Assembly: GCA_003614675.1 (NCBI GenBank)
Contig: ML002254.1
Coordinates: forward strand, 1-57,043
Direction of reading: 5' to 3'
DNA from: Dimargaris cristalligena
Lineage: Eukaryota
DNA length: 57,043 nucleotides
Shown: piece after piece, positions 4,499-54,841 of the stretch
How positions within the stretch are numbered: the stretch's first letter is position 1
How the letters are laid out: each line of letters starts with the position of its first letter
The notes under the pieces: model-generated
Database searches by the model: none
What the model saw: only the letters and a program-made list of their open reading frames with translations
What the model was told of the DNA's origin: nothing
Translations under genes and position numbers: made by a program

Positions 4499-6020
4499 TG
4501 ATATACCTCAGCCTGGGACTATGTTGCGACTATTACCGACATCTACCGGACCCTGTACCCCGCAACCCCCCCAGTTCACCCCACTCCTCCCTGCCATTAT
4601 ACTTTAGACATTAACGATACCTTGGCCCGAGTTGCTGCTCCCAGCTTGGGATATTCGAGCCCGCCATTTCGGCCGCGCCAATGGCCTTAATTGCCCACTC
4701 CCATTCTTTTCCTTTGGAAAATCCCTTTATGCCCCCCTAACTCAGTGTGACTATTCGATAATCACAAGTAATGATCCTGTATGAATGCCCATCATATTAC
4801 TTATCCATCTACTTATCCTTTCCCATTATCACTTTGGTGACAACCCATTCGAGTAGACTTTTTTGCCCTCCCTCGTTTTAATATTATAATAGTGCCTATC
4901 CATAATTCACCTCCACCCTCCCCATTTAATTGTATTTTCAATGAACATCGTGACTTATCTGGCGCCTCTTTGACATTATTGTAGCGAACCAAAAGCATTG
5001 CTGTGTTATCATTTTTGGTTTTGCGTGTGCGTGTGCGTGTGTGTGTGTGTGGATGGGTTTAGCTACAACTGTATAGAGTTGAGTGGGCTCCTTTTTCACC
5101 TCTAAATACACCTGATGCTAAATATAGGTTGTGGACATTGAATTCTTCAATGACCTCTAAAGCAGCCTACTGAGCTGGTGTATATCACTTGAAATTGCAA
5201 GTGTACTTTTGCCCTGCCCATGAGAAATACCGACTGAAACGGCCCAACATTTGGAGATCTGCGCCTACCGAGGATTGCTATGGCACTGACATGTTGGTCT
5301 TTTGCAGCATCAGCTATAACGTGGAGGGAACATGCTTCCACAATTGGGGAGCATTATCGAGGTCTGGAATGGCACTATTTCATGCGAATAGTCAGCAATG
5401 TCTGTTGATTGTATACATGTAAGTGTGTGCGTGTGTGTGTGTAGTAAGTCTCCCTGCTCCACTATATAATGATTCTATATACACACAGTGGTCAGTCCTG
5501 GTTTCATCCCCCAATCAGAGGTACTCGGCATTTTTTTTTTCACTATTGCCAAATTAACTGCTCTCATTCAAATTTCAACCCTCTCCCCCTACAATGATTA
5601 AAGAAATACACTAAGAGAGGAACTTCTAAACTCCCTTCTACTTTCTATTAACCCCCGCATTTCTTTCGTATGGAGTCCTTGGACAAAACTACCAGTAAGT
5701 CCACGGCTTCGACTTGGTCAGTTCATTGTTGGTAAGATACTCTGCCGAAAAGGCACCCTGCGCGAGGTGATTGGCCCCCCTACCTCGATTCCTTCACACA
5801 CACACACACACTCTCTCTCTATTGATTTTTTTCACTCTTTCGACACTCCCCACCCCGTCCTTTTTCTAATCCCCCTCGTCGGCCTCAATTCATCTACCCT
5901 AGAGCTTGTTTGAAGGAAACGCCTGTCCTGAATCACAGTCACCGTTGCCTTATTCCTTACCCAGTCCTGCTCAAGTCAGATATATATATCACTCTTTGCC
6001 TTCGTTTCTGGTTCCCACCA

Positions 6021-9000: not shown

Positions 9001-9158
9001 CTACAAAAACTACGCGATTTAATTCATCTATGGCCAAACCAAGAGGTGCAGCTGGATCGTCCCGGACGTCGTCGGCCGGTAGTAGCCCACCCAAAATTAG
9101 AGTCGCCGGGGCCCAGCGGAAAACGCGCAAGTCCGGGCTGTTCGCAATGGCTATGTAA
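6021..9158 (+). CDS. Net1/Tof2/Dnt1-like nucleolar protein with an N-terminal Cdc14-binding-type domain and a long Ser/Asp-rich disordered body
   Basis: Intronless ORF of >1000 codons; first ATG at 6021, alternative ATG at 6096. MYRLKTQLVLL...KRRFLII...TLAQLKTKIARMYHQMYP...VDILRLKDLAFYDLPDIYRVEEVF resembles yeast Net1 as recalled (MYKLQVVLV...KKFLLFT...LSLQDNSGCDLDPDFLVKDVF). Acidic SDSDS blocks alternate with Pro/Thr/Lys blocks; C-terminus is basic. Confidence 0.7.
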   Translation: MYAHQTPNGGNGLHYSPQVARPQPTMYRLKTQLVLLSDTLPNSPRRGPLSLLQAEGDMDGPSDSVTYNASSRRPSPLRGGGMGMGGMPSMILNDDLSSHAGGLTAYKVKRRFLIIERGEATLAQLKTKIARMYHQMYPHDPSVDILRLKDLAFYDLPDIYRVEEVFGDSDTLFAMATVTMPPTHYPNPNEHQQLQIVQSMAEVHIRSSPPNETPIRMLSTTSVDHSALAHSVSTVHAVSQEMVTPTAPEFQNPRKHSLAPQSAAIDDDNSLPAKKPKFPPARSPSPADHTPSRLGGGGGFPASGTDTPTQAMVTPTLAQATSPTTEMIDDGPSVAMISDIGIASPREGSVVVNPLDRSQGNGRTAVAAKTFASPTIVQASPSVPTLSTAQLARSAMHNITLKSPGRVAPPPALSPPEAAPAPAPVAPLPQPTQSTGSNTVAEREAIKKNDEHTQPPKQSSDSDWGQLPESDSDLDSDSSSEADSESEPEPKATPATTPVSRPAAPKAVPNAKPVPSPRTSAWTQLRPAVKTIGGHSCSDSDSDSDADVLIIPTSRKSGPATRSSTGLRSAAPSTTSVTTRTSTKTSTSIPAAKVTQQRAVASKTPSKPLASPKSGTGSQMDIDSDLGPKTQVTQAKTPSNSNPPAPPVRTSTSNAKLTYSSDSDSESDSSATSDSESDSDIVDPSSQNAQRPTVPKTEAQPLKPVSPIVVVSAPMDVDSESESNSDADTASDTDTDSDTDIIISKVNPTVPTPTIPQANTDVRVAVDSGSSSESEESELDLESDSEDNPKVNNQGDQKQPGVQIPVIPQSNLAVEQPTPAKLDSESDSGSGSDSNSDTDTDSGSDGDSEESNSETAASSTSMDSSNKTTTQASAKATLALNGRRTSGPPGGAISMDLAPGKLLQKSSFRSLSQIAASRQFDQLRTSAQLVTGAAKIFNSPAHSLLHSPDVLSDESNEDDDDDDSDSDSASSASLSSSSDDDSESESKSKAISNSTKTTRFNSSMAKPRGAAGSSRTSSAGSSPPKIRVAGAQRKTRKSGLFAMAM

Positions 9159-29595: not shown

Positions 29596-30447
29596 CTTGG
29601 TCACATAACCACAACCCTTCAAAGCAGCAACAACCCTCTAAGGTTGTGGGGTCATAGGGTGAACCCACCAGCCCCAACCGTCTTCCATTTCCAACTAATA
29701 GTAGGACTTAGATTGGCGAGGAGGAGAGGCAGTCAACAATGCTGGGGGCTTGTACTGTAAAAACATATAGGGAGTCTCCAGCCCTCTCTGTGGCGGTGGA
29801 AGCAGCAGCAGTCTTGGTGGATTTTTTAAAGAACGCAGCCTTGTCCCTGACCCTACAGTATAATACTGTGCACCAATAATAGTAAGTGATTCATCACGGG
29901 AGGACCGTGGTTCCAAGACGACGTGTTCTGTATTCCGTTTTGGGTTTTCGGCTGCACTAACTTCCCTTGAGTGGGGTGGCCTTCCCGCAGAAAAATCTCC
30001 CATACAAAGGGACGCTATTTTCTCCCACCATTATTGGTGTATACCGCCGCTGCTGTTTCTTATCTCCATGTATGCGCCACTGCTGCTGCTAGCCAGCCTG
30101 TGCGATTCAACTGATACATAAAAACCCCGGGCTCGCCGTCCGCTGGATGATTTTTTCAGTGAACCCCCCCTCCATACCTATCTATATGCATACCTTATAT
30201 ATATATATATAATATGCCACGCTCCTCCCCAGTTACTCTCTCTACTGAACCCTTTTCTCATATCTAGTCTAGTCTAGTCTAACCTCACTTACCTTAACTT
30301 CTACGCTTTGGTCTATTGCTTAAATACAGCTGCGTTAATCCCGACCCTTCGTCCACCCCTACTCCCTCCCCGCCCATTTGCTCCATACATCCGGGAACAG
30401 CATCCCCTCCCCCTCCCTCCTCCACCCCCTCATTTCCCTTACTCACC

Positions 30448-31104
30448 ATGACCGCCTGTCAACCCACCGCCCACTCCGCCACGGCCCTAGCCGCCTCGTG
30501 GGGCTCGGCCGATTCCCCCCTTCCGCCCGATGGTCTCCCGGTTCTTTTCAAAACCCTGATGTTCGCCTGCGAGAAACACTCCGACCAACGCCGCAAGGAT
30601 CCCGAGCAAACGCCCTACATCAACCACCCCATTGGCGTGGCGTCTTTCTTGGTCGAAGCCGGTGTCACCGACCTGGTCACCTTACAAGCCGCCCTGCTCC
30701 ATGACACCATCGAGGACACCGACACCACCCCGCAGGAAATCACCGCCCTGTTCGGTGAGGCCGTGTGCCGCGTGGTACTGGAATGCACCGACGATATGGC
30801 CCTGCCCCCGTCCGAACGGAAACGTATTCAGGTCCGTAAGGCCGCTTCGGCTTCCTATGATGCTAAGCTCGTGAAATTGGCCGATAAACTCTATAATTTA
30901 CTGGACTTGTGCCGCGCTGTGCCCGTCGGTTGGACCCCGCGTCGGGTCCAGGCGTACTTCGCTTGGTCCAAACAGGTCATCGACTGCTGTGCCGGAACCA
31001 GTCCTATCCTGGAGGCCCGCCTTAACTATTTGTTTGAACATGGAACTTTCACATTCAACGGTCAGAAACATAAGTGTCTTTGCCGCAGCGTGCCATTCAA
31101 CTGA
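30448..31104 (+). CDS. HDDC3: MESH1/HDDC3 HD-domain (p)ppGpp hydrolase / NADPH phosphatase, intronless
   Basis: KHSDQRRKDPEQTPYINHPIGVA, AALLHDTIEDTDTT, LECTDD and AKLVKLADKLYNLLDL...PVGW..RRVQAYFAW, all characteristic of Mesh1. Confidence 0.93.
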   Translation: MTACQPTAHSATALAASWGSADSPLPPDGLPVLFKTLMFACEKHSDQRRKDPEQTPYINHPIGVASFLVEAGVTDLVTLQAALLHDTIEDTDTTPQEITALFGEAVCRVVLECTDDMALPPSERKRIQVRKAASASYDAKLVKLADKLYNLLDLCRAVPVGWTPRRVQAYFAWSKQVIDCCAGTSPILEARLNYLFEHGTFTFNGQKHKCLCRSVPFN

Positions 31105-36320: not shown

Positions 36321-37563
36321 ATGCCGCCAAAGAAGAATCAGCCGGCCGCCAAAACCAATGACAAGAACAAAAAGAAGCAAATCGAGGACAAGACCTTTGG
36401 TCTCAAAAACAAGAATAAGTCCGCCAAGGTGAACCGCTATGTCCAACAGGTCGAACAGCAAGTTTTGACCGCGGGTAACAGTAAGAAGCTGAAGGAGGCC
36501 GAGGAACGGAAGAACCTGGTCTCGAATAAGAAGGAGGCGGAAGCTAGGAAGAAGGCCGAACTGGCCGAGCTCTTCAAGCCCGTTTTGGCCCAGCAGAAGG
36601 TGCCCTTCGGCGTGGACCCCAAGACAGTACTGTGCGCGCATTTTAAGCAGGGCACTTGCACGAAGGGCGACCGCTGTAAATTCTCGCATGATCTTAAAAT
36701 TGACCGGAAGGCGACTAAGATTGACATGTACACCGATGCTCGTGACGATAAAGAATCGGGTAAGTACAGTGGAGATTTATATATATATTGAATCGACTCC
36801 AGTGTGGACACTATGAATCCCGCAACGACTATTGCCCCCAGAACCGGGTATTTTCCACTAGCCTAATTTTTCACTGACGCCCAACCCATTTCCCCTACTA
36901 CTACAATTATATCTCCACCTACTAGATACCATGGACTCTTGGGATCAGTCTAAGCTGGAATCTGTGGTCAACTCTAAGCTTACCAAGAACTCCAACATAA
37001 CCGACATCGTCTGTAAACATTTCCTCCAGGCCATTGAGGACCAAAAGTACGGTTGGTTCTGGGAATGTCCCAACGGTGGACCCAAATGCCAATACCGTCA
37101 CGCGCTACCCAAAGGGTTCATCCTTAAGAGTAAGAAGGCGCAACTGGCGGAAGAGGAGGCCAAGAACCAGATTTCGTTGGAGGATTTCCTCGAAACCGAG
37201 CGGCATAACCTGGGTTCGAACCTCACGCCCGTGACGTTGGAGACGTTTACCCAGTGGAAGAAGGACCGTCGGGCCCGGAAGGAAGCCGCTGAAGAGGCCG
37301 AACATAAGGCGAAGGAGGCCGCTTTTAAGGCCGGGCGGGCTGTGAATATGAGCGGGCGGGACTTCTTTGACTTTAACCCGGAGTTGCTGCAAAATGGTGA
37401 GGATGAGGAAGGGGATGTATTCGAAATTAGCCAGTATCAGAACCGGGCCGATGAAGAAGGCCACCAACAACCCTCCACGGCCGACGCCGACCGGGAGGCG
37501 GACCCGACCAATGATGGAACTCGGTTGGCCGAACAACTCGAAAACACCAGTCTGACCGCCTAG
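36321..37563 (+). CDS. TMA46: Tma46/ZC3H15 (DFRP1) CCCH zinc-finger protein, two exons
   Basis: Exons 36321-36759 and 36926-37563. Motifs MPPKK, IEDKTFGLKNKNKSAKV, QKVPFGVDPKTVLCAHFKQGTCTKGDRCKFSHD, KYGWFWECPNGG and LTPVTLETFTQWK. Confidence 0.96.
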
Positions 37564-38547: not shown

Positions 38548-41500
38548 CAACACCCTCTTTATCCTAATTAAGCCCTGGGCAGTCCACATCCCCCTTTATA
38601 TATGTCCCGGGCGGTAGCTTGGCCTTCGACAAGAGGTATGTTCAATTTCGCCGATATATTAACCGAGTATCCCCCCAGGGTGGATTGTCGAGAGTTTAAA
38701 ATGGCTCGAAGAGAAAGGGTTCCTTCTGGGGGTAGTCGCTGACACTATTTCGGTTGAACTAGAATGTGACACTACCCTACCAACTGCCTCGGTTTCCCTA
38801 CGGGTTGTGGCAATCCAAGGTTTCATGTATTTATTATTAAGGTGGTTGACTCCCTGTATAGGCCCTACTCCTTGGCTAGTCGAGTATATATAGGCGGAGA
38901 AAAGTGCGATTAGGTGAGAAAGTGCGAGATAATTATAGAGAGTAGCCTTTATAGTTGTATATAATGGCAATGGTAGTGGTCGAATAAAATATAGATTGAC
39001 CTACTACATCCATGCTAATTTTAATCAGCTCATTTTGCGGCTGATGATCACCAAACCCGGGACTACGGTCCAGCTTTCCTACCTACCTACCTGCCTGCCT
39101 GCGAAAGTGCCGCGGTCGAGAAGAAGAGAAAGGAAAGTCGGGGCGATTGCGATAATGAGGTGAAACAGGCGGCAATGCTAATCGTTTACTTTAAAATGTG
39201 GTTGATTGGGTAGGATTTAGGTCATTTACCAGCTCGAAAATCAATAGCCCGGGGCCCCAAGACCAGCTGAACCTGTACGATGCCCCCCGCTAGCGGATGG
39301 GAGGCCCGCCCTATGGCAATCTATTGCGGACGCCATTAAGGTGAATACAAGGGAAATGAAGAGTGAGGAGGGTTGGGGCCCACCCAATGTTGCCTGACCC
39401 GTACAAAGTTGGGACCCTTCTTAGATTTCTATACAAAAACCTATTCGTTTACCTATCATACTATCCACCGCCCAGCGTCTAATTGCCAGTGCAGACCCTG
39501 TGTGAAAAATGCATAATTGAGGGTAAATAAGATGGTGTTGATGAATAAAAATGTGCTAGAGGTGCAAATAAAGTTGTTGCACTGTTTCTAAATCTAATGA
39601 ACGACCGGACATGGTAGACATATTTTAAAAAATAGGGAGAAGGGCTTCGTAGGCGAGACACAAAATGTAATAGTGCAATACGCAAGTTAAACGACCTACT
39701 ATAGTGAAGGTATGGCAGTCAAGGGCGATGATTTTTGGAAAAGGGGAATAGGGGGGTAAGCCCTATAGCCCCTCGCCAATCGGACTCAAGTACTAGTTAG
39801 TCGGGTTTCCCGAAATAAATATTTAGGGATCTTTGTATAGATCCGGGAACAGGCCGCCGTTGGTGGTTTTTGCACCCTTGAGTCGAACGACGAAGGGGGC
39901 GAGATTGCCGGCTGTAGGAGGGATAGGAGAGAGGGAGTTGAATTAAGGCAGGCCTATCCTATCCTATCCTTCCCTTATTTCCCTTTCCCTTTCTTCCCTC
40001 CTTGCTGAAGTACGCCTGGCGGGCCATTTCATTCAGTACACATACCCCCTCACCCAGACGACTGTTGCCGAATAATTCGGTATGTATATATATACCATGT
40101 CGCGGCCTTCTATAAACACTATCTTTCTAACATCGGTTGCTCTGAGCCTACTAATTCGCCCAATTCTCCACCCTCTCTTCTCCTATTCTATCCACCTATC
40201 TTTGGCCCCTCTTAATTTTCACTAGTTCTTTGGCCGTGTTTCCCTGTATAATTCGCGGACCATTGCTAGCATTACCCTCGCCGTTCTTTACTGAAACTTG
40301 CCCCCAATATTCTATAATAGCCGCCGTTTTTAAAAAGGATCTACATAAGTCACACTGACCTACCTAGATATCCGACATACTTCCCCTAAGACCACTCGTG
40401 TATAGACCCGAGCAAAGTTGCGCTCCCTTATCACTATCGAAATGTAGGTTATTATATAGACCTGCCTCATTACCATCATATGCACATTTTTATTACCCGC
40501 TTTGTCCATCTTGACTCCATTAGCTGGCTCAGGATACACCTACAATTACTGAAACAACGCCCAGTGAATATATTTAGTAACTAACTGCCACCGTTTATTA
40601 CGCCTTTCCTTTTCCAATCCCCAAAGTTAGCTGAAGTCCACCCTCACCGACTTCCACCTCGTAGTTGCTACTTACCCTCCTTACCTCTTAGTCCGGCAGT
40701 TATATAGCACTATGTCTGCCTTGAATGCCATACGGTTCAGCCTCTTCGGTCTCCTGGTGAGTCTGACGCTTCTAAACTCTACACATGCCCAGGCTGCCGC
40801 TCCGGAAGTGAATATTCCCGTTCCCCCCTACCAGCGCTGCGATAGCTTTAGTTACCAAATGACCAAGGAGGACATTGAGAAGGATTTCATAGTTGACTTG
40901 CCGGAGCAGGTCACCTTTGAAAACGGTGTCATGTACTGGGAATCCAATGAACAAAAATTCTGGCCCGGGTTGACTTATCGTGAGAATGACATTTGGTATG
41001 GCAAAGCCTCGATTACACTCAAGATGGCACCGAAATCCGGTATCGCCACCGCTTTCATTGTAAGTAATGTGTTTTAATTCCGTTTGTTGTTTCACCCCTT
41101 TTTATCCCGGAAATTTATTCATATTTACCCAAACATGGGAGTCTCCTCAATACGGATACTCTCATACCAGACCGAGAATCATTACATAGCACACACCGCA
41201 TTCTTGGCTGTTTTTCTTTGAATGGACTTCTGTACTAACCCTCGTTCTCAATATAAATTTATATACACCCTTTGCCAAAATGTAATTATCTCTACCCCAC
41301 TTTATCCAGCGTGGTAAGCAATCGGCCGATGAGCTTGACTTTGAATGGGTCGGTAAGGATACCGCCCGCGTCCAATCCACCTTTTTCGTCAACGGCCAAA
41401 ACACGGAGCGCAAAGAAGCCGTCTATGGGACAGCCGCCACCGATTTAGCCGCCGAATTCCACACGTACGCTATCAACTTCCAGCAAGATCATATTGAGTG

Positions 41501-42575
41501 GTCGGTGGACGGCGTGGTGACGGACAAGCGGACCCGGGCCGAGAACCCCACCTACTATCCGGAGAACGCCCGCGAATGGAAAATGAACCTGTGGAATGCC
41601 GGGGCCGGGCACGCCGCCTGGGCTGGCCCTACCGACTGGTATAGTGAACCTAAATCCGTGCGGGCGGCCATTAGTGCCATCAGTTTCGAGAGTGCCTGCG
41701 GCGCTGATGTCGTCAAGGGTGAACATAAGTTGCTCGGTGGCGCAGTAGCCGCCCCCGTCGTCGCTGCACCCGCCCCTGTTGTCACCGCCCCCGTCCCTGT
41801 CGTCCCCGCCCCCGCCGTCGCAGCCACTCCCGAACCCGTTCTGCCGGCTCCCCCCGCTGCCCAGCCCGAGGTTTAAGCCACGGTTCCTCAAGCTTAAGCC
41901 CTCCCCGCCCGCACCCACCCAGGCGCTGACCGCTGCTGGTGACGATTCTATAACTCGGATTACTAGGGAACCCAATACCAATTCCAATGTCTCGGATAAT
42001 GCGTGCTTATTGCGCGAGCCTCTCTAACCCTAGCTACTACACTTTATGAAACTACACCAATTTAGTTGTCGGACGGCAAATTCGCTCGTTAAACGCTTGG
42101 AGGGATGTGCCTTTAACACTTTTTCCTGTATAAAAATATAGTCACACGACTGGCCATTTAGGTTGATTTTCCCCGGCGGCATTACCAATCTGCGATATTT
42201 TATCGGGCTAGTCCGTGTTCTATAGTACTATTTTTTAACTGTATTATACATTTCCACCCCTAAAAAACGAGGCATATTGTTTAGCGATTTAATTTGTCCT
42301 CCCGGCATGGAATGTCGGTTTGGGGTACCCTTCTCAGTTTTATTTTTCATTCCTGGTTGAATGGTATTGTAGTATCTCTATTTATTTGGCATCATGTGTC
42401 TCAGCAAATGCATTTCGATTTAGTTTGGACATATCAATAAATCTCTTGTGATCGTAACTACGAAACAGTGGACGGTCAATCAAGCTTGATGCAGCGGAAG
42501 AGTGCACTGGTGAATAATATTATAATGGCACTAAAATACCAAGATGGTGGTCTCCTTAATATCTTACACTACATT
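38548..42575 (+). repeat. Segmental duplication, copy 1 (~4 kb, includes the GH16 gene and its flanks)
   Basis: Collinear with 44228-48155, e.g. CTAATTAAGCCCTGGGCAGTCCA at 38564 and 44244 and AAAATACCA near 42535 and 48117. End points are approximate. Confidence 0.93.
40712..41876 (+). CDS. Secreted glycoside hydrolase family 16 (Crh/licheninase-like), copy 1, ~304 aa
   Basis: Signal peptide; exons 40712-41059 and 41310-41876; IWYGKASITLK..KSGIATAFI, DELDFEWVG (ExDxE catalytic motif), EFHTYAI, NLWNAG..AWAGPTDW; Pro/Ala/Val tail. Probable 5'UTR intron from GTAGGT at 40444. Confidence 0.92.
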
Positions 42576-42599
42576 TGCATATTATCAAGTTGTCTCATA

Positions 42600-43550
42600 G
42601 CAGCGGTAATATCCGGTGGATTTTCGAAAGTTTTTACTACGGGCTTTACTTACCCGTTAGTTTTGTAAAGCTGTTTGGCTTTCTTGCAGGGGATGGCCAG
42701 CAGTGGGTGTTGGACAGTCCAGTAAATATTCCCGATTTTAAATAAAGCAAAATGTAAACTAGGCCCAGCTGATAACTAAGTATATTTATCAAGGAAAGGC
42801 CTTGTTGTGATGAGGTCCATAAGTAGAGCCTTAATCTACCATCATACCAAGAATATGTACCAAGTGGTAAACACACACCTAAATACATACATATATATAG
42901 GCATAAAGCAATATTGAAATGGTGAAAATTGGTGCCACGTCAAGTTCTAAGATATCTCTTTGGAAGACTGGCCCAGCAATTTCAGTGGTATATGAACAAA
43001 AATGAACAATATAATAGTTAAACAATGCTTTAGTGTGGTCTATTGGTATTATTCCTGGCGGAAATCTTAGGTAGTCCAGGGATATATAATAGAGCTATAT
43101 AATTATTAATAACAAATATAATAATTTCAATCAGAAGGGTTTAACCCTAGAGGACTAAATTGGTAATATTAGCCAATATTGGTTGCATGAGCCTGTGGAA
43201 TGAATAAAATGTAGTAGGGGCTGACCAAAAGCTCTGTGATAATATATACACTTATGAGGTACCAGTAAGCATAGCCTGAGTAGATCCAAAGGTGAGAACC
43301 AAGATAGGACCACCATTGGGGTTGTCAAAGAGTACCATTATTGATTAGACATGGGCTAAAATGGTACAGTCTGAAACTACCTAAGAGTATTGGGCTAAGT
43401 AACAAATAAGTAGGCAATACTGCATATATATGATGGCCCAGTTGGTTAGTAAGGGTAATCAGGGTAGAGAAGGGGGTAAGGTAGTAGATATATATATATA
43501 TTGGGCATAAGATGGGGTTATTATAGGTGTAGATAATAACACAGTAATAG
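42600..43550. mobile_element. AT-rich, CpG-depleted degenerate repeat relic (family not recognised)
   Basis: Almost no CpG and an excess of TA/TG/CA compared with neighbouring DNA; no ORF; interrupts the duplicated segments. Confidence 0.45.
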
Positions 43551-43554
43551 TAAC

Positions 43555-44140
43555 TATTGGACCATCTAATCTACCTTAATCTGGTCAGCTTAGACATCCA
43601 ACCCTATTAGGCTGTATAGTACCATATTAACCTTCCCATAGTTACCCCCAGGACTATGAGATTATCCCTTATTACATAACCCTTCCCCTTCTAGACTCTA
43701 CCTCTTTACACTACTCACTCCAGTGCTGATCCAAAGACTCTTCCAATTACCTTTAGAGACTTCTGGATACCAATAACTATCCAGTCAGCCTATTTATATA
43801 TCCTTAGTCTTAGTAGTATCCTTCCCTTGGGACCTCCCTCTAGAGTTCTCCCTGTGTATATATAACTAGGCCCCATTGGGACCACTTAGATTCCTCAGCT
43901 TATTCTTACTTCTTTTTTAGTTAATAAACCCTATATACACTTACTCCCCTTTATACTAACTAGTAAGCATACCCACTATATGCCCCTTACATATCCCTAC
44001 TATATCCTTTATTAGTTAGTGCTATATCCTATACCTGATACTAGTAGCCCACTTAGCTGAGTCTAAGCCTTACTTACTATTAAAAACCTATCCTTGGGAC
44101 TCTTGATGGACTAAGAGTGTTTAACCCAGGTACCATATAG
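43555..44140 (-). mobile_element. Uninterrupted copy of an older LTR-like repeat
   Basis: Its reverse complement aligns with 48596-48759 joined to 53727-54150 (shared AGAGGGAGGTCCCAAGGGAAG, AGGAATCTAA and AAGAGTCCC.AGGATAGG). Ends are approximate. Confidence 0.8.
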
Positions 44141-44227
44141 GAAGACAGCAGTTAAAGGATGATAGGCACCACCAGGTAATTAGTTTTACTAAATAGTATA
44201 GAAGACCCATCAGGACATATTTTTTAA

Positions 44228-47200
44228 CAACACCCTTTTCATACTAATTAAGCCCTGGGCAGTCCAGATCCCCCTTTATATATGTCCCAGGCAATAGCTT
44301 GGCCTTTGACAAGAGGCATATTCAATTTTGCTAATATATTAACCGAGTATCCCCCCAGGGTGGATTGTCAGGAGATTAAAATGGCTCAAAGAGAAAGGGT
44401 TCCTTCTGGGGGTAGTCACTGACACTATTTCGGTTGAACTAGAATGTGACACTACCCTACCAACTGCCTCGGTCTCCCTACGGGTTGTGACAATCCAAGG
44501 TTTCATGTATTTAATAGTAGGATGGCTGGCCCCTGTATAGGCCCTAGTTCTTGGCTAGTCAAGTATATATAGGCAGAGAAAAGTGCGATTAGGGGAGAGA
44601 GTGCCAGATAAATATAGAGAGTAGCCTTTATAGTTGCATATAATGGCAATGGAAGCGGTCGAATAAAATATAGATTGACCTACTACATCCACGCCAATTT
44701 TAATCTACTCATTTTGCAGCTGATGATCACCAAACCCGGGACTACGGTCCGGCTTTCCTACCTACCCACCTGCCTGCCTGCGCAAGTGCCGCGGTCGAGA
44801 AGAAGAGAAAGGAAAGTCGGGGTGATTGCGATAATGAGGTGAAACAGACGGCAGTGCTAATTGTTTACTTTAAAATGTGGTTGATTGGGTAGGATTTAGG
44901 TCATTTACCGGCTCGAAAATCAATAATCCGGGGCCCCAGACCAGCTGGTAGTACGATTCCCCCCGCTAGCGGATGAAAGGGCCGGCCGATGGCAATCGAT
45001 TTGCGGACGCCATTTAGGCGAATACAGGGGGATGGGGGTAGTGGGGGTGGGGGTGGGGGTGGGGGTTGAAGCCCAGCCAACGCTCCCTGACCCGTACTAG
45101 ACTGGGCCCCTTCTCTGATTTCTATAAAAAAATCTATTCATTTACCTATCATGCTACCTATCGCCCAGCATCCAATTGCCAGTGCAGGCCCTGTGTGAAA
45201 AATACATAATTGAGGGTAAGCAAGATGGCGTTGATTAATAAAAGAGTGCTAGAGGGGCAGATAAAGCTGTTGCAATGTCTCTAAATCTAATGAACGACCC
45301 GACGTAGTATATATATTTTTGAAATTAGGGAGATGGGTTTTGTAGGCGAGAAACGAAACGTAATAGTGCAATACGCAAGTTAAACGACCCACTATGGTGA
45401 GGGTGTGACCAATTCAAGGACAAGGATTTTTGGGAAAGAGAAAGGGGGAGGAATGAGGGATGGGGGAGGCAAAGGTCTTCCACACAAGGGGGGGGTAAGC
45501 CTTATAGCCCTCGCCAATCGGACTCAAATATCAGTTATACGGGGTTCCTAAAATAAATATTTAGGAATCCTTGTATAGATCTGAGAACAGGCCGCCGTTG
45601 GTGGTTTTGCACCCTTTAATCGGACGACGAAGGGCGCTAATTCGCCAGCTGTAAGAGGTAAAGGGGAGGGTAGGGGTTGAATTAAGGCCGACCTACCCTT
45701 CCCTTATTACCCTTCCCCTTTCCCTTTCTTCCCCCCCCCCCTGCTCAAGCACGCCTGTCGGACCATTTCATTCGGCGCACATACCCCCTCGCCAAGGTGA
45801 CCGTTGTCGAATACTTCGGTATGTATATATATACCATGCCGCGGCCTTCGCCCTATAAAAGTCATCTTTTTAATATTGGTTGCTCTGAGCCTAATAATTC
45901 GCCTAATTCCCCACTCAGTCCTCCTATTCTATCCATCTTTTTTTGGCTGTATTTCTCTGTTTATTTCACGGACTATCGCTCGCATTACCTTTGCTATTCT
46001 TTACTGAGACTTGCCCCCAATATTCTATAATAGCCGCCGTTTTTAAAAAGGATCTACATAAATCACACTGACCTACCTAGATATCCGACATACTTCCCCT
46101 AAGACCACTCGTGTATAGACCCGAGCAAACTTGCGTTCTCATATCACTGTCGAAATGTAGGTTATTATATAGACCCGCCCTTTACCATAATATACACATC
46201 TACATTACCCGCTTGGTATATCTTGACTCTACTAGTTAACTCAAAGCGAACATGCAAATACGGAAACAATGCCTAGGGGTTGTTATTAGTAACTAACCAC
46301 CACCATTTATCACGTCGTTCCTTTTCCAATCCCCATAGTTAGCTGAAGTCCACCCTCACCGACTTCCACCTCGTTGTTGCTACTTACCCTCCTTTCCTCT
46401 TAGTCCGACAGTTATATAGCACTATGTCTGCTTTGAATGTCATACGGTTCAGCCTCTTCGGTCTCCTGGTGAGCCTAATGCTCCTGAACTCTACGCATGC
46501 TCAGGCTGCCGCTCCGGAAGTGAATATTCCCGTTCCCCCCTACCAGCGCTGCGATAGTTTCAGTTACCAAATGACCAAGGAGGACATTGAGAAGGATTTC
46601 ATAATTGACTTGCCGGAGCAGGTCACCTTTGAAAACGGTGTCATGTACTGGGAGGTAAACGAGCAGAAGTACTGGCCTGGTTTGACTTATCGAGAGAATG
46701 ACATTTGGTATGGCAAAGCCTCGATTACACTCAAGATGGCACCGAAATCCGGTATCGCCACCGCTTTCATTGTAAGTAATGTGTTTTAATTCCGTTTGTT
46801 GTTTCACCCCTTTTTATCCCGGAAATTTATTCATATTTACCCAAACATGGGAGTCTCCTCAATACGGATACTCTCATACCAGACCGAGAATCATTACATA
46901 GCACACACCGCATTCTTGGCTGTTTTTCTTTGAATGGACTTCTGTACTAACCCTCGTTCTCAATATAAATTTATATACACCCTTTGCCAAAATGTAATTA
47001 TCTCTACCCCACTTTATCCAGCGTGGTAAGCAATCGGCTGACGAGCTTGACTTTGAGTGGGTGGGCCAGGATACCACCACTGTCCAATCCACTTTTTTCG
47101 TAAACGGCAAAAATACGGAGCGTCAATCGGCCACATTTGCGAAATCTTCCACCGATTTAGCCGCCGAATTTCACACGTACGCAATCGACTTCCAGCAAGA

Positions 47201-48155
47201 TAAGATTGAGTGGCTTATGGACGGTGTGAGTGTAGACAGTCGGTCGCGGGCCGCTAAACCGACGTACTACCCGGAGAACGCGCGCGAGTGGAAGATGAAC
47301 CTGTGGAACGCTGGGGCCGGTCACGCGGATTGGGCTGGCCCCACCGACTGGAACAGTGCGCCTAAATCCGCTCGGGCGGCCATTAGTGCCATCAGTTTCG
47401 AGAGCTACTGCGGTGCGGACGTCGTCAAGGGTGAGCATAAGCTGTTTGGAGGGGCAGCGACCTCCCCCACCGCCTTTATAACCGCTCCCGCCGCCGCCCC
47501 CGCCCCCACGGCCACTCACGAACCGGTCCTACCGGCTCCCCCTGCTACCCAATCCGATACCAATGCCGAGGACTCCGGCAAAAAGTGTTAATTGGGCGGG
47601 TCTCTCTAACCGTAGCTAGTATACTTCATGAAACTACACTAATTTAGTTGTCGGACGGCAATTTCGCTCGTTTGATGCTAGAAGGGATGTGCCTTTCAAA
47701 CTTTTTCTTGTATATATATATAGGCACAAGGCAGATAATTTAGGTTAATTGTCCCCGGTGGAAATGCCAACCTATAGCTCTGTGCCGAATTGTTCTGTGC
47801 TCTATTATATAAAAATTCATCTGTATTGTACAATTACGTCCCAATGTATCGGGGTAGATTGTTTAGCGACTTAACGTATCCCCCGGGCATTAAGTGTTGG
47901 TTTAAGGCATCCTTCTCAGTTTTATTTCACATTCCTGGTTGAATGACATTACAGTACCTTTATTTATTCGGCACCATGTGTCTCAAAATAAAATTTCAAC
48001 TTAGTTTGGACATATCAATAAATTCCTCATGATGATTGTCAATACGTAAAGTTGATTGATAATTTATCTCAATTCAGCAGAAGGGTGCTCTAGTCAATAA
48101 TGTTTTAATGGTATTAAAATACCAGTTGGTGGTCCTTAACATTGCCCACTACATA
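44228..48155 (+). repeat. Segmental duplication, copy 2
   Basis: Direct repeat of 38548-42575, offset about 5.6-5.7 kb. Confidence 0.93.
46424..47591 (+). CDS. Secreted glycoside hydrolase family 16, copy 2, ~305 aa
   Basis: Exons 46424-46771 and 47022-47591; same motifs as copy 1 including DELDFEWVG; different tail ending SGKKC. Confidence 0.92.
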
Positions 48156-48360
48156 TATGGATGAAGTTCAGCTTAGCTGTATAAGAATTTAACTGATATG
48201 TGTATGGGAAAATCAGTGGGATGTTTATTTTCAACCAGTAGTACTTGCCTCATCAAATGGATTTTTCATTATATAGCCTGGATGATCTACTCCCATATGT
48301 GTTGCCTGGTAAATGGGGTATATCATAAATTGGGAGAGGGGTATAGCCAAAACTATACAT

Positions 48361-48584
48361 TGTTAAAGGATATATTCCTATGTATTCTTTATTCTATCCT
48401 ATTTTTACCCAATTAAATTAGTTTATTCTGCTATCATGAAATCATTCATGTTAGCCACTTATATTTCACCCTATCAAAAATTACAGTTCAATAAAACTAA
48501 CCACCTAGAGGTACCTATCATTCTCTAGCTGCTTTCTTCCCTTTCTTCCAGTTTTATTTCCTTTAAGTCCTTAGTATTCTAATA
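48361..48584 (+). mobile_element. Solo LTR of the adjacent Copia family, in opposite orientation
   Basis: Reverse complement of the LTRs at 48760 and 53504. Starts TGTT and is flanked by a perfect 5-bp TSD TACAT (48356-48360 and 48585-48589). Confidence 0.92.
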
Positions 48585-48595
48585 TACATATGGGC

Positions 48596-48759
48596 TATTG
48601 CCCAGGTTTGCCACTTTTAGTCTGCTAAGAGTCCCGAGGATAGGCTTCTAATGGTAGGTGGGGCTTAGGCTCAACTAAGCAGGCTACTAACATCAGGTAT
48701 GGGGCATGGAACTAACCAATAAAGGCTTAGGTGATCAGTTATGCAAGGGACATGCAACA
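48596..48759 (+). mobile_element. Left part of the older LTR-like repeat, interrupted by the Copia insertion
   Basis: Aligns to the reverse complement of ~43980-44140. Confidence 0.75.
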
Positions 48760-48982
48760 TGTTGGAATACTAAGGATGTAAAGGAAACAAAGCTGGAAGT
48801 AAGGGAAGAAAGCAGCTAGAGAATGATAGATACCTCTAGGTGGTTAGTTTTATTGAACTGTAATTTTTGATAGGGTGAAATATAAGTAGCTAATATAAAT
48901 GATCTCATGATAGCAGAATATACTAACATAATTGGATAAAATAGGATAGGATAAGGAATACATAGGAATATATTCTTCAATA
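48760..48982 (-). repeat. 3' LTR of the Copia element
   Basis: TGTTGGAATACTAAGG...TTCTTCAATA, a direct repeat of 53504-53726. Polypurine tract AAAGGGGAG (minus strand, 48983-48991) abuts it. Confidence 0.95.
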
Positions 48983-49029
48983 CTCCCCTTTATTACAAGT
49001 AGGAATAGTAATAACATCCTGTTTGTTGG

Positions 49030-52000
49030 ATGTAAAGAGATGGATATTCAAAGGTTTTGTTAAAAAATCAGCCTTTTGTTTATTACTAGGCACATGTTTT
49101 AAGGTGATAATTCCTTTGTCAATGTAATCTTGAACCACATGGAATTAAATATCAATATACTTAAAGCAACTGTAATTCACAGGGTTTTTTTCAATAAGGA
49201 TACAAGTCATATTATCACTGTAAATAGTGATAGATATAGAAAAGGAATTGAGAAATTGGAGGACTTGTTTAACCCAAATTGCCTCCTTTGTAGCTTCAGA
49301 TAGAGCAATATACTCAGCTTCAGTAGTAGAAGTAGCAACTAGGGTTTGCTTTTTGGATGCCCAGGATACAGAGCCACCATCCAGAAGAAATAGGTAGCCA
49401 CCTATAGATTTTCTGTCAAAGGAGTCACTGGCAAAATCACTATTACAAAAATCAATTTAACCCAAATTTTTACCATCAAAGGTAATCCCATGGATTAGGG
49501 TACCTTTAAGGTAGTGTAGAATTCTTTTAGCAGCAAGCCAGTGGGTAGTTGTGGGTTTGGGATTAAAGGAACTTAACTTGTGAATAGCATAGGTAATATC
49601 AGGTCTAGTGCAATTTGATAAATACAACAGGGACCTAATTAAGTTGGCATAAGGTTCATTGGTGAGCTCACAAGTAGTGGTGGCAGGTGAGGGTTTGAAG
49701 CCAGGCTCCATGGGAGTGCTTGTTGGGATGCTCTGTTCCATGCAGTAGTCCTCCAGTAAGTCAGAAATATATTTCTGCTGGTGGATAATAGCTGGCTATC
49801 AGTTGACTTAATTTGTGAGACTTGAATTCCAAGTAAGAAATTCAATTCCCCTTAATCAGTTATTGAGAATCTAGTATTGAGTTGTTGTTTAACCCAATCC
49901 ATACCAGAAAGCTCAGATGAGACAATAAGCATGTCATTAATATACACAATAAGGTATGTATGTAGGTTTCCTTAAACCTTGGCATAAATACCATAATTAA
50001 GTTTACACTTTAAAATGTCACAGGATAGCAGAAACTCATCAAGAGTTTGATTCCAGAGACTTGGAGTTTGCTTGAGTCCATATAGGCTATGGTTAAGCTT
50101 GCAGACAGAGTGTTTGGGGATCTGGAATCCCTCAGGAGGTTCAATAAAAACTTCCTTATCAATTTTACCATTCAAAAACACAGTTTTAACATCCATTTGA
50201 TGAATAAAAAGGTGATACTTAGCAATAAGTGCCAAGAGAATCCTGATGCTAGAGTAGTGAACTACAGGTGCAAAGGTTTCATTGTAGTTAATTCCTTTAC
50301 ACTGATGGAATCCCTTAACAACTAGTTGAGCCTTGTGATACTCAATAGTACCATCAGGGTGTAACTTAGTAGTAAGAACCCAATGACAGGGTAAAACTTT
50401 GGAGGTTTTTGGGCGAGGTACTAAGTCCCAGACTTCATTTTCAGCCATGGACTTGAGTTCAAGGTTAATGGCCAACTGCCATTCCTTACGGAACTGATCC
50501 TTCATGGCCAGGGAGTAATATTGTGGACCATCCATGGCCAGAAAAGCTAAATTGGAAGGAGGGTTGGAGTTGGGAGAGGGAGGAATGCTGCCAATATATT
50601 TAGACAGTCGAGGAGTTGTCAATTGGAGTTGTTTTGACCTTTTAAAATGATTCCTTTTTAAGGGAATAGCCTGGGGGCCGGGGACAGGTGCTCTGTAGTT
50701 GAATTGGACAGGTGTAGGGACCTGGTGGGAGATATTAGATTTCTTGAGTTCAGATTCAAGTTCCCAGTCATTCAGATCAAGATTTGGGTCTACAGGGATG
50801 CCACTTAAAGTGTGTGGGCTTAATTCCATGCTAAGATCACTTGTATTAATGACCTGGGGTATGGTAGATACCACTGAAAAATTTTCAGAACCATATGTAG
50901 ATTGGTTAGAAATATCTATTATCACAGGTACAGTTACTACTGCAGGAGGTGCATAAGATATATGGTCTGCATTAATAGATAAATTTAAGCCTGGATCCTC
51001 ATCTGGGAGGTAAAAGTAGTGACTGGAGGTATTCTGGGCTTGATTCCGGATGGTTTTTGATGGGGATGGCTGTTCTGAAGTCCAGGAAGCCAGGGAATCA
51101 GGCAAAAAATGCATGTCTTGACTGACAATGACCTTGTTTGACTGGGGGTCAAAAAACTTGTAGTTTTTCAGGTTGGCAGTCAGCCCCACGTAGAGGAGCT
51201 TCTTTGAGGTTAGTTGTAACTTTTGGGAGTAAAAATTGTTGGCTTTGATGATTGCCTTAGACCCTAACTGGTGAAATCATGTAAGATCTGGCTGTTGGCC
51301 ATACCAGCGTAAATGGGGAGTGTCATTACCAATTTTAGGACTAGAAATCCTATTCTAAATTATGGTAGTAGCCAGAAGTACTCCCCCCAAAGGGATTTGG
51401 GTAAACCCTTTTCATTAAGCATGCATTTCACAGTAGAGTGAACAGTTTAATTGAACCTTTCAGCAATGCCATTTTGTTGGGGGGAGTAAGGTGCACTAGT
51501 GGAATGAGCAATTCCATACTCCTTGAGGATAGTAGTGAATTGATGGAAGATGTACTTACCACCATTATCAAAATGAATTTCTTTAGGAAACTTACCAAAC
51601 TGATTGTTCACATACTTTAGATACCAGTCCAGTGCCTGGGGTACATCAGATTTATGTTTAATCAAACTGACATAAGCCATTCTTAAAAACTGGTTAATAA
51701 AAGAGACAAAATAGTATTGTCCTTTCATTGTTCTGATAGGCATAGGACCAGCTATGTCAGTGTGAATTACCTCCAGTATGGTGAACTCAGGGTCCAGCCT
51801 ACCAGAGAAGGGTAGGCAAGTTGCCTTATTAATTAAACAGGTTTCACAAGGTTGGATATCCTTAGAAGTAGTTAAATCAACACCTGGTAGTAGGCCAGAC
51901 TTGGTTGCCTGAATCAGTAATAGATAATTAACATGGCCTAAGTTAATGTGGGCCTGTTGAATTGAATTTTCCTTTGAAATCAGGGCTTTGGGGGTTAGAT

Positions 52001-53223
52001 CTTATCTAGGATACCACATTTTGATGGTATATGTATGTGTGCATGAACCTGCATAAAAGGACATCCCATTAGGGAGAGTAATCTCACAAGTATCAGAAGT
52101 AAAATTAATACTTGCACCTTTCTTTGTTACCTCTTTGACCAAAAAAAGGTTAAAACCAAGCTCAGGGCAGAAACCAACATCAAAGAGAGTGATAATTACA
52201 GGTTTTCCAGTGGAGCTGGTAAGGGTAACCTAGATATTGCCTTGACCTAGGATAGGTACTGTACTGTTGTTGGCAATGGTGATGGAGGTCTTAGAGGGTT
52301 TGAATTCTTCAAAGAGTTCCAAGTAAGGGCAGAAGTGGCCACTTGCACCAGAATTGACATACCAAGTCTCAGTTGGATTTTCTTTTTGGGCAGAGGCCTT
52401 GAGGGCTAGGCCAGATTGTTGGGGTTCTTATTCACAGTGGGGAGGTGCAGGGACCTTGGGTTTACTCAATTACACAGCTAACTTTGCAGTTTGGGCCTTA
52501 CATTCATTGTTGGAATGGGAATTTGAATTGTGGTAGTCACAGTACTTACCAGAGGGTTTCCCCTTTTTCCCTTTGACCTTTTTAGGGGTAGCAGGTTTGT
52601 TGAAACTGGCTACAAGGGTAGAGGAACTAGACATAAGGGGGTTTGTTCTTGGTGTAAATAGTCTCTGTAAAGACTATCCCTAATATTAGAAAACTTTAGA
52701 TCAGAAATTTTGGTGGAGTTAAAAATTGCAATTTGAGTTGTAAATTGGTCCTGCCTCATGGAGTTAATAAGGATCAGGGAGCAGATTATCTCCTTGCCTA
52801 GTTTGAGGCTCTCAGTTTTACCGTAGAGTTGCCACACCTTATTGGCCATCTAGATTAGGGTCTCATCATCTTGATGTAGGTTGAAAAGTTATTGGTAGAG
52901 CTCCAGGGCATGTGAGGCCTTATTCAAGTTGAAAGCACTAGCCAGGGTACTCCATATTGCATTTTCAGATGGGCAGGACCTGATAGTTGGAAGCATATTA
53001 GCAGTGACAGAGGCTTGGATCTTGAGTTTGGCCAGGTGGTCTTTCTTATACCAGAACCTAGTGGAATCAAACTTGACCTCTTATCTTCAGTAGTGATAAT
53101 GAGGGTCAAAAATGGGGCTTCAACAACTTCCCAGAGGTCATCTAAGTTAAGGTGATTTTGCATTTGGATACTCCAGTCATCATAGTTTGTACCAGTAAAT
53201 GTAGGAAGAGGGGGGAGATTCAT
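49030..53223 (-). pseudogene. Disrupted gag-pol polyprotein
   Basis: Fragments in several frames (ORFs 52924-53268, 51447-51743, 49972-51189, 49457-49741). Catalytic motifs are altered: DSG>NSG and YVDD>YIND. Confidence 0.93.
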
Positions 53224-53488
53224 TGTAAAGGACTGGCCAATCATTAGATGGATAGATAAAAATACCAAAAACTAGATGGATGGATATAGGAAAAGACTTA
53301 AAAGTATCTATAGATAGATGAAGGATACAGATGGAGTCAATGGATAAAAATAAAGTAAAAGTTTGTACTGGCTGCAAAGGCACAAATATGCAATTGATCA
53401 GGACTAATGCACTATTCTGCAGGGATATGTAAGCGGTCAATGCACACATGTACAATTATTTCAAAGATAAAAGGATAAACATGCATAA

Positions 53489-53503
53489 GCAGGGCTCATA
53501 ACC
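53489..53503 (-). promoter_or_regulatory. Primer binding site complementary to the anticodon stem-loop of initiator tRNA-Met
   Basis: Minus strand GGTTATGAGCCCTGC directly after the 5' LTR end (CCAACA). The plus strand reads GCAGGGCTCATAACC, the fungal tRNAi-Met anticodon arm. Confidence 0.9.
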
Positions 53504-53726
53504 TGTTGGAATACTAAGGATGTAAAGGAAATAAAACTGGAAGTAAGGGAAGAAAGTAGCTAGAGGACAGTAGGTACCTCTAGGTGGTTAGTTTTATTGA
53601 ACTGTAATTTTTGATAGGGTAAAATATAAGTGGCTAACATAAAGGATCTTATGATAGCAGAAAAAACTAACAGAATTGGATAAAATAGGATAGGATAAAG
53701 AATATGTTCCTACATATTCTTCAATA
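53504..53726 (-). repeat. 5' LTR of the Copia element
   Basis: Direct repeat of 48760-48982; differences are mostly transitions. Confidence 0.95.
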
Positions 53727-54150
53727 TAGTGGGCATACTTACAGGTCAGTATGGGGGGGTGAGTGTATATAGTGTTTTTTGGGGTAAACTAGGGGGGTAA
53801 GAGTAAAGCTAAGGAATCTAACCAGTCCTAAGGGGGCCCAGTTATATATATACAGAGATGGCTCCAGAGGGAGGTCCCAAGGGAAGACTATGGGTAACTA
53901 AGGTATATAGTAAAACTAGGCCAGTCAGATGGCTACTAGTATCTGGAAGACTCTCATGGTAACTGGAAGGGTCTTTAGATCAGCAGGTTAAGTGATTACT
54001 ATGAAGAGCTGGAGTCCAGAAGGGAAAGGGTTATATGATATAGGGTGATCCCATAGTACCAGGGGCGACCATGGAAAGTTTAATATGATGCTATAAGTCT
54101 TAATAAGGGTGGGTAGCAGGGTGTTTGGATTAAGATGGATTAGAAGGGCT
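53727..54150 (+). mobile_element. Right part of the older LTR-like repeat, interrupted by the Copia insertion
   Basis: Aligns to the reverse complement of ~43555-43980. Confidence 0.8.
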
Positions 54151-54841
54151 GATATGGGTGCTTTAGAGCAACATATTTAATAGTGATATGCATGTAACAG
54201 CATGGGTAAATAGTACTAGAATATGAGCTATTGGTTTGAAGAGGAACCATAATGTGGTATGTCTGTGTAATATTTAATTAGAGGTGTTTAACCAAGGTAG
54301 GTGGCACCTGTCACTGGCATGGTCCCAAGTGATACTGAGTTGGTTAAAATTATACTTCACCATGAACTATGGTTCTGGTGATAATCCTGGAGCCCTGGTC
54401 TATTTAGTGGATGTATGACCTGCAGAATGTATACAAGTAAATACCTCGAGCCTAATTAGCCCCGTATGAATATATTAGCATTCCTAATACGTAAAATATA
54501 CATTTTTTCAACCCATGCTATGCCTACAAACCCACCACTGGCAGAAAAGAGAGTCAATCAAAATCCACATAATTCAAAAAATTATATGCACGTAATAGTA
54601 ACTATCCATTGCATTGTAATGAGGGAGTAAAACAGATTAAAACATAAATAAATTGTAAATGTGAGACACAAAGATCTGATATAGGAAAAGTTCAACGGCA
54701 AGGATGGCAAATTCTGATATTTATTACTTGAGGCTGGCATCAGTTCATTACATATAGTATCTCGAGGAGTTGACCAAGTGGCGGCAGTGAATAGGGATCC
54801 AAAAGGTGAATGATGGAATATCGATGTCACCATGTTTTTTG

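Follow-up and report, generated by a model that had tools for sequence, protein, structure and literature searches.

Does an early-diverging fungus mutate its transposons, and if it does, is the process repeat-induced point mutation (RIP) or something that leaves a similar footprint? The question is raised by contig ML002254.1 of Dimargaris cristalligena (assembly GCA_003614675.1, positions 1 to 57,043; the whole 57,043-nucleotide (nt) stretch is referred to here as the window), which holds a degenerate Ty1/Copia long terminal repeat (LTR) retrotransposon, several short repeats and, beside them, a tandem segmental duplication carrying a GH16 gene. An initial annotation of positions 48361-54150 read the Copia element as a case of RIP-like C>T and G>A hypermutation, at CpG and elsewhere, in a fungus outside Dikarya. 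Our analysis of the sequence suggests that the two repeat islands of the window are probably transposon DNA undergoing a methylation-type decay, targeted at transposons and acting on CpG far more than on CpA, which fits better than true RIP.

The placement of the host outside Dikarya agrees with taxonomy, D. cristalligena being a member of Kickxellomycotina, Dimargaritales. Species of Dimargaris are mycoparasites of zygomycete grade and belong to the early-diverging fungi. The TMA46 exon of the window (36862-37563) has 100% identity with a D. cristalligena protein at NCBI, and the runners-up, Dispira parvispora (67%) and Tieghemiomyces parasiticus (64%), are both Dimargaritales.

CpG is lost from two repeat islands

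The Copia element had been described as nearly free of CpG in a genome with CpG-rich genes, and this is borne out. Only 11 CpG lie in 48361-54150 (observed/expected ratio (O/E) 0.052), of which the Copia body has 9 in 4517 nt (O/E 0.052), and the O/E of 43288-44227 is 0, whereas the gene-rich 1-38547 has 1903 CpG and an O/E of 0.86. The longest CpG-free gaps (1779, 1514 and 1285 nt) all fall within the two repeat islands (Table 1) and are far beyond chance; outside the islands a CpG occurs every 23.7 nt on average and no gap exceeds 205 nt. Every NCG context is depleted alike, with a loss of about 98-99%: TCG, ACG, CCG and GCG number 5, 5, 8 and 4 in the islands (7.7 kb), as against 1039, 740, 1206 and 821 in genes (38.5 kb). 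A target specific to TCG was rejected because all four NCG are equally depleted; nor is TCG shunned among the 11 surviving CpG, where it accounts for 5 of the 22 strand readings.

The products of CpG decay are present where the CpG are missing. The Copia body has a surplus of TpG and CpA, with a (CpA+TpG)/(ApC+GpT) of 1.31 as against 1.09 in genes, as would follow if CpG had decayed to TpG and CpA. Doublets of TG facing CA, each of which is the scar of one ancestral CpG that decayed independently on the two strands, number two in the LTR pair and six in the abundant repeat pair. The coding frame of Copia carries the same trace: at third codon positions preceding a codon that starts with G, C is found once in 216 and T makes up 56%, whereas before codons that start with C or T, C makes up about 30%.

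The border of the decay is sharp. Island 1 reaches into copy B of the GH16 duplicate, where five of the six CpG that copy A has in the boundary zone have decayed. One of them is the CG>TA double change that had been pointed out at 44332-44333, which reads CCGAT in copy A and CTAAT in copy B. The spill of CpG decay ends after about 116 nt, and while the first 120 columns of the duplicate have 9 GC>AT changes, 2 AT>GC changes and 2 transversions (binomial p=0.065), changes are balanced in direction over the other 3.9 kb. CpG depletion with a gain of TpG and CpA, in repeats only and with sharp borders, is the pattern predicted for decay of 5-methylcytosine (5mC).

A gene duplicate beside the islands lacks context bias

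The tandem duplication provides an internal control. It spans 4 kb, with 3856 aligned nt at 85% identity and an open GH16 exon in each copy, and its CpG O/E is 0.90 in copy A and 0.84 in copy B. The two copies were presumably identical at birth, and their divergence by now roughly equals that of the Copia LTRs or is greater, with a transversion divergence (202/3856) at least that of the LTR pair (8/223). Differences between them are symmetric in direction (C/T 103 vs 103, G/A 88 vs 81; transition/transversion ratio (Ts/Tv) 1.86), and transitions per C hardly depend on context (CpA 0.18, CpC 0.18, CpT 0.19, CpG 0.24), so that neither CpA (75/428 vs 185/1000 at CpC and CpT; p=0.71) nor, to any large degree, CpG (91/386 vs 260/1428 in other contexts; odds ratio 1.39) stands out. 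We take this lack of context bias to mean that the process is aimed at transposons and not at duplicated DNA.

Past the first 120 columns of the duplicate (38668-48154), genic CpG mutates hardly more than C in other contexts (0.24 vs 0.18-0.19 transition differences per C). This implies that genes in D. cristalligena would be essentially unmethylated.

A weaker component of C>T change at CpA

The initial annotation also argued that cytosines outside an intact CpG had mutated. This stands in part: C>T change is elevated in repeats at CpA above the genic control, but the decay is dominated by CpG and the effect at CpA is only few-fold. In the repeats the frequency of C>T at CpA is higher than that at CpC or CpT by a factor of about 3.5, a real second component of moderate size. 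Non-CpG transitions in the repeats do differ from the neutral background, being raised at CpA where the GH16 control is flat.

The substitutions at conserved Copia residues that had been listed are all present, namely DSG to NSG in the protease (codon at 52355, GAT>AAT), DNGGE to DNGGK in the integrase (51557) and YVDD to YIND in the reverse transcriptase (RT; 49941 and 49938), each of them a sense-strand G>A change. To count such changes we used 163 Copia codons with a conservation of at least 80% across 91 non-redundant homologues, whose columns were anchored by tblastn and which served as outgroups to polarise the changes. Thirty of the 163 codons have changed. The 303 sites at which the amino acid fixes the ancestral base include 19 G>A, 3 C>T and 6 transversions, and none of the 149 A/T sites among them has undergone A>G or T>C. 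Sorted by context on the C-bearing strand, the changed sites are 5 of 5 at CpG, 13 of 75 at CpA and 4 of 86 at CpC or CpT (CpA vs CpC and CpT, p=0.010). An R codon at 51449 has gone from CGA to TAA, likewise a CG>TA double change. The stop codons of Copia (8 TAA, 2 TAG, 1 TGA) are mostly at unconserved columns, and their origins are uninformative.

In the trio of LTRs, polarised private changes of C>T or G>A type number 11 on 21 CpA columns and 3 on 47 CpC or CpT columns (p=5e-5); two of the 11 are CpG-derived TG/CA doublets, which leaves 9 on 19. With doublets excluded, the LTR pair has transitions at 7 of 21 CpA vs 5 of 49 CpC or CpT (p=0.034), and the abundant repeat pair at 25 of 40 vs 34 of 134 (p=4e-5).

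If CpG methylation decayed on its own, this CpA excess would have to come from small samples, mis-polarisation or composition. Where changes are not polarised, T>C at the numerous TpA sites can inflate a pairwise test, and a form robust to composition compares YpA with YpC and YpT. By this measure p is 0.029 for the abundant pair, 0.041 for the 5' LTR and solo LTR, 0.278 for the 3' LTR and solo LTR and 0.108 for the LTR pair, which thus loses significance; yet the direction is the same in all four repeat comparisons and slightly reversed in the GH16 control, where far larger counts give no CpA effect. Codons with a certain CpA or TpG are mostly intact (changed W 0/8, C 0/3, Q 0/5), and among the sites listed in a comparison of the window with other copies (40 of about 1990 variant sites, a sample in which hot sites are under-represented) the 17 window-private GC>AT changes with the best support are spread over contexts (CpG 3, CpA 5, CpC 6, CpT 3), with 9 changes running the opposite way and 10 transversions. 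Both observations suit a CpG-only account; the codon test, polarised by 91 outgroup proteins, still separates CpA from CpC and CpT. The signal in that test is largely D>N and E>K after a T (9/26). We consider it quite unlikely that CpG decay alone is at work.

Polarisation of the LTRs by a three-copy majority gave a symmetric result (14 vs 13) and was discounted, as parallel hits at hot sites flip polarity. Such unreliability would also favour the CpG-only account: at 48822 and 48826 nearly all other contigs have G, and two of the three-copy 'A>G' calls are really G>A. At both positions the 3' LTR and the neighbouring inverted solo LTR share A where the 5' LTR has G, a match that could reflect either parallel G>A changes or gene conversion between the neighbouring LTR copies.

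A target narrowed to TCA, which the codons favoured (9/26 vs 4/49), was dropped. Non-coding repeats are hit to a similar degree at ACA (7/13), CCA (13/25), GCA (4/6) and TCA (8/17), so that the 5' base does not matter there, and the Copia body shows no shortage of TCA or TGA.

The excess of sense-strand G>A over C>T at conserved codons (19 vs 3) would also be expected if, while this Copia copy was being made by retrotransposition, its minus-strand cDNA had undergone APOBEC-like deamination. The non-CpG rates, 15/112 on the antisense strand and 2/49 on the sense strand, and the preponderance of GA>AA in D>N and E>K are of the kind such editing would leave. The strand gap, however, is mostly a matter of codon make-up, with 109 ancestral G sites and 45 ancestral C sites, and among the sites listed the window-private changes lie mostly on the other strand (on the + strand, 13 G>A vs 4 C>T). 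Because the same pattern is found in the boundary zone of the gene duplicate, which was never reverse-transcribed with Copia, and between the LTRs, where it arose after insertion, cDNA editing is a very improbable general cause.

Relation to RIP

The step from this mutation pattern to RIP is not supported. The property that defines RIP, mutation of any duplicated DNA longer than a few hundred bp with genes included, fails the one test that the window offers, the GH16 duplicate beside the islands showing no such mutation, and the Copia body fails the RIP indices. Thresholds for these are TpA/ApT of at least 0.89, a substrate index (CpA+TpG)/(ApC+GpT) of at most 1.03 and a composite RIP index (CRI) above 0. 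The Copia body has 0.96, 1.31 and -0.36, the opposite of Neurospora-type RIP; the abundant short repeats, by contrast, pass all three. As had been noted, differences between the LTRs are mostly transitions (16 transitions and 8 transversions over 223 aligned columns; the LTRs are 89% alike), but at 16 to 8 the transition dominance expected of RIP is absent, and outside CpG the Ts/Tv of 1.5 between the LTRs does not exceed the 1.69 of the GH16 control. All variant places of 42500-54300 together have a Ts/Tv of about 3.3 in run X1, a figure with gene-duplicate differences mixed in. The few-fold effect at CpA is unlike the near-exclusive transitions of Neurospora RIP.

A looser relative of RIP would be an active RIP-like mutator, a repeat-directed deaminating or methylating activity that hits CpG first and CpA second and so yields TpA. 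An order of CpG then CpA has been reported for RIP in some species of Aspergillus and Penicillium. The CpA>TpA excess in three partitions (codons, LTR trio and abundant repeat pair) and the CG>TA doubles at 44332-44333 and 51449 are consistent with such an activity, and so are the LTR termini: as annotated, the + strand has TGTTG...CAATA at the ends of both LTRs of the element and TGTTA...CTAATA at those of the solo LTR, with TA where TG...CA is canonical. The reach of about 116 nt into the flank resembles RIP leakage, and the abundant repeats have a positive CRI. The cited part of a study of Entomophthorales describes RIP-index signals there together with RID-like domain architectures (PMC11105155). 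However, the tandem GH16 copies, 4 kb long, show no such mutation, the CRI and substrate index of the Copia body point the other way, and transitions do not swamp transversions, whether counted overall or outside CpG. The distribution of RIP argues against it as well, since a kingdom-wide screen, in the portion cited, saw repeat-directed signatures in ascomycetes only (PMC12543289) and a table of a 2026 review confines RID to Ascomycota (PMC13297926). We regard such a mutator as unlikely, if worth keeping in view, and the same holds for its most novel version: an active, transposon-directed C>T mutator with a preference for CpG, CpA coming second and CpT and CpC far behind, that recognises its target by transposon or heterochromatin state instead of by sequence duplication and spares gene duplicates. 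If this were true, it would be a RIP-like defence outside Dikarya that lacks RIP's cost to gene duplication.

Structure of the islands and their surroundings

The coordinates of the islands, the Copia element and the duplicate are collected in Table 1.

Table 1. Features of the window in and around the repeat islands.
Feature	Positions	Strand	Description
CpG-free island 1	43059-44344		0 CpG in 1285 nt; fragments of a very abundant short repeat; enters duplicate copy B by 116 nt
CpG-poor island 2	48045-54447		11 CpG in 6.4 kb; O/E per kb 0.00-0.10; solo LTR, Copia and flanking repeat fragments
Degenerate Ty1/Copia LTR retrotransposon	48760-53726	-	4967 nt; genes on minus strand
5' LTR	53504-53726	-	223 nt (alignment)
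3' LTR	48760-48982	-	223 nt; purine-rich tract just upstream (element orientation)
Copia internal part (body)	48983-53499		4517 nt
Solo LTR, same family	48361-48584	+	Inverted relative to the element LTRs; 90.6% and 89.5% alike to them
Abundant short repeat copy	53727-54150	-	73% alike to 43562-43981, inverted; 1 CpG; CRI +0.58
Fragment of extremely abundant repeat	48155-48360		0 CpG (computed over 48155-48362)
Boundary zone	44228-44344	+	First 116 nt of duplicate copy B, adjoining island 1
Copy A of tandem segmental duplication with GH16 gene	38548-42574	+	PF00722 in open reading frame (ORF) 41286-41876; internal control
Copy B of tandem segmental duplication with GH16 gene	44228-48154	+	PF00722 in ORF 46998-47591; internal control

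The hallmarks of Ty1/Copia are present, namely the LTR pair, the purine-rich tract before the 3' LTR and the order protease, integrase, RT and RNase H. Threading by tblastn to polyproteins places the protease and integrase at 52427-51381, the RT at 51360-49768 and RNase H at 49789-49019, and these three pieces contain 11 in-frame stops and two frame changes. Homologues of the element carry PF00665, PF07727 and PF13976. A search with a 434-aa ORF against longer and shorter proteins gave no protein copies of the same family, just Copia relatives with 57% identity or less, and a metagenome scan for the family found just two loci, at 45-52% identity. The sequence 53484-53503 beside the 5' LTR looks like a primer-binding site, which we take to resemble the copia-type pairing with the anticodon stem-loop of initiator tRNA-Met. 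The element has no recognisable target-site duplication (CAACA at 48755-48759, TAGTG at 53727-53731), and since it also abuts other repeat fragments on both sides, the insertion appears to be nested or rearranged.

Contigs from four public runs of the same organism were stacked on 42500-54300, giving a summed depth that does not equal copy number. In run X1 this depth is about 148 in unique flank, 727-1391 over most of the Copia body, 26,709-79,323 on island 1 and 302,422 in bin 48016-48409, which holds the extremely abundant repeat. The Copia, LTR and short-repeat parts are repeats, with contigs piling up on all of them.

A repeat island lies at the downstream junction of each GH16 copy (43059-44344 and 48045-54447), and transposon fragments may have mediated the GH16 duplication or followed it. 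Elsewhere in the window, CpG-normal DNA holds a 1110-aa ORF with a Cdc14-binding Cytokin_check_N domain (5826-9158), a cytochrome P450 gene (25272-27179) and a gene for an HD-domain protein (30298-31104). A practical use follows from the composition, as CpG-free islands flag dead transposons in the D. cristalligena genome.

A model of transposon-targeted decay

The mutation pattern, its contexts, the sharp borders and the untouched gene duplicate are matters of observation; methylation as the cause, and the identity of the enzymes, we infer. We propose that the fungus marks transposons and about 100 nt of flank, most likely by cytosine-5 methylation, and that marked cytosines slowly deaminate to thymine. 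The marking would be overwhelmingly at CpG, in any flanking context, such that CpG is now some 98% gone and TpG and CpA have built up, while a weaker component at CpA would generate TpA and the apparent CG>TA doubles. This second component would fit a methyltransferase set with low non-CpG methylation, for example a Dim-2-like enzyme beside one of DNMT1 type. As duplicated genes are spared, the trigger is likely to be the transposon or heterochromatin state and not presence in two copies. Targeting of transposons with a short spill into the flank is, by analogy, the behaviour to be expected of heterochromatin-directed cytosine methylation.

Several observations weigh against this model. The abundant short repeats pass the RIP thresholds (TpA/ApT 1.47-1.53, substrate index 0.75-0.89, CRI +0.58 to +0.78), with values of 1.53, 0.75 and +0.78 in 43288-44227. 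At conserved codons the non-CpG changes, GC>AT at 17 of 161 sites and AT>GC at 0 of 149 (p=1e-5), exceed ordinary AT-biased mutation. A several-fold excess at CpA is not expected under CpG maintenance methylation alone, which would leave no C>T excess outside CpG. The evidence for the CpA component itself involves small counts, and the composition-robust pairwise test is weaker. A literature search returned no paper that mentions both Dimargaris and DNMT1, and among the papers listed for Dimargaris and methylation none dealt with the topic, judged by title or opening of the abstract; index-based RIP signals have been published, in the part of the report cited, for another zygomycete order, Entomophthorales (PMC11105155).

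Comparison with known systems

Fungal 5mC lies preferentially on transposons, according to the cited portion of one report (PMC7862722), and Dim-2, which methylates non-CpG sites, is recorded there and in the cited part of a review as occurring in early-diverging fungi (PMC7862722, PMC13297926). For Phycomyces the same passages describe both DNMT1 and Dim-2, with CG methylation above non-CG methylation (PMC7862722, PMC13297926), and a repertoire of this kind would, by analogy, give an order of CpG far above CpA. The window resembles 5mC-driven CpG decay in fungi in that the loss of CpG is confined to transposons, the products are TpG and CpA, genes are spared and all NCG are hit; unlike plain CpG maintenance decay, the Dimargaris repeats add a CpA>TpA component of about 3.5-fold. 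A literature search for a methylome of Zoopagomycota or Kickxellomycotina found none, nor did it find DNMT data for D. cristalligena or its subphylum.

The RID-dependent RIP of Neurospora crassa and other Pezizomycotina shares with the window C:G>T:A change in repeats, TpA products, a positive CRI in the short repeats and a small leak into the flank. By contrast with RIP in Neurospora, the main target in Dimargaris is CpG and not CpA, the Copia element fails the indices, transitions are not dominant and the gene duplicate is untouched, and Dimargaris belongs to a lineage outside the known range of RID. The TpCpG hypermutation of Pucciniomycotina (Microbotryum, Puccinia, Melampsora), which as described in the section cited requires a 5' T and leaves VpCpG unelevated (Horns et al., 2012, PMC3318451), is also a CpG-centred C>T change in transposon copies of a fungus without classical RIP. 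In Dimargaris, however, no 5' T is needed, all NCG being depleted, and CpA is affected as well.

A precedent from another lineage is Entomophthorales, where the composite RIP index marks 24.2% of the genome of Zoophthora radicans and where, with the authors' own caveats, the cited part of the study suggests that RIP may act outside Dikarya (eLife 2024, PMC11105155); the kingdom-wide screen mentioned above, the latest of its kind and based on k-mers, found repeat-directed mutation signatures in ascomycetes only, in its cited portion (PMC12543289). Entomophthorales and Dimargaris are alike in zygomycete-grade lineage and in RIP-like composition of repeats. Unlike the windowed index used for Entomophthorales, contexts in Dimargaris were tabulated against an internal control, with CpG as the main target and duplicated genes escaping. 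The footprint is of a known kind, in a lineage for which we found no report, and its novelty is modest. Its value lies in the contrast within a single locus, between transposon DNA stripped of CpG and in part of CpA and an adjacent gene duplicate of similar or greater age that is without context bias, which argues for a transposon-targeted cytosine-modification system in Dimargaris and raises the question of whether non-CpG methylation, or a deaminating defence, operates outside Dikarya.

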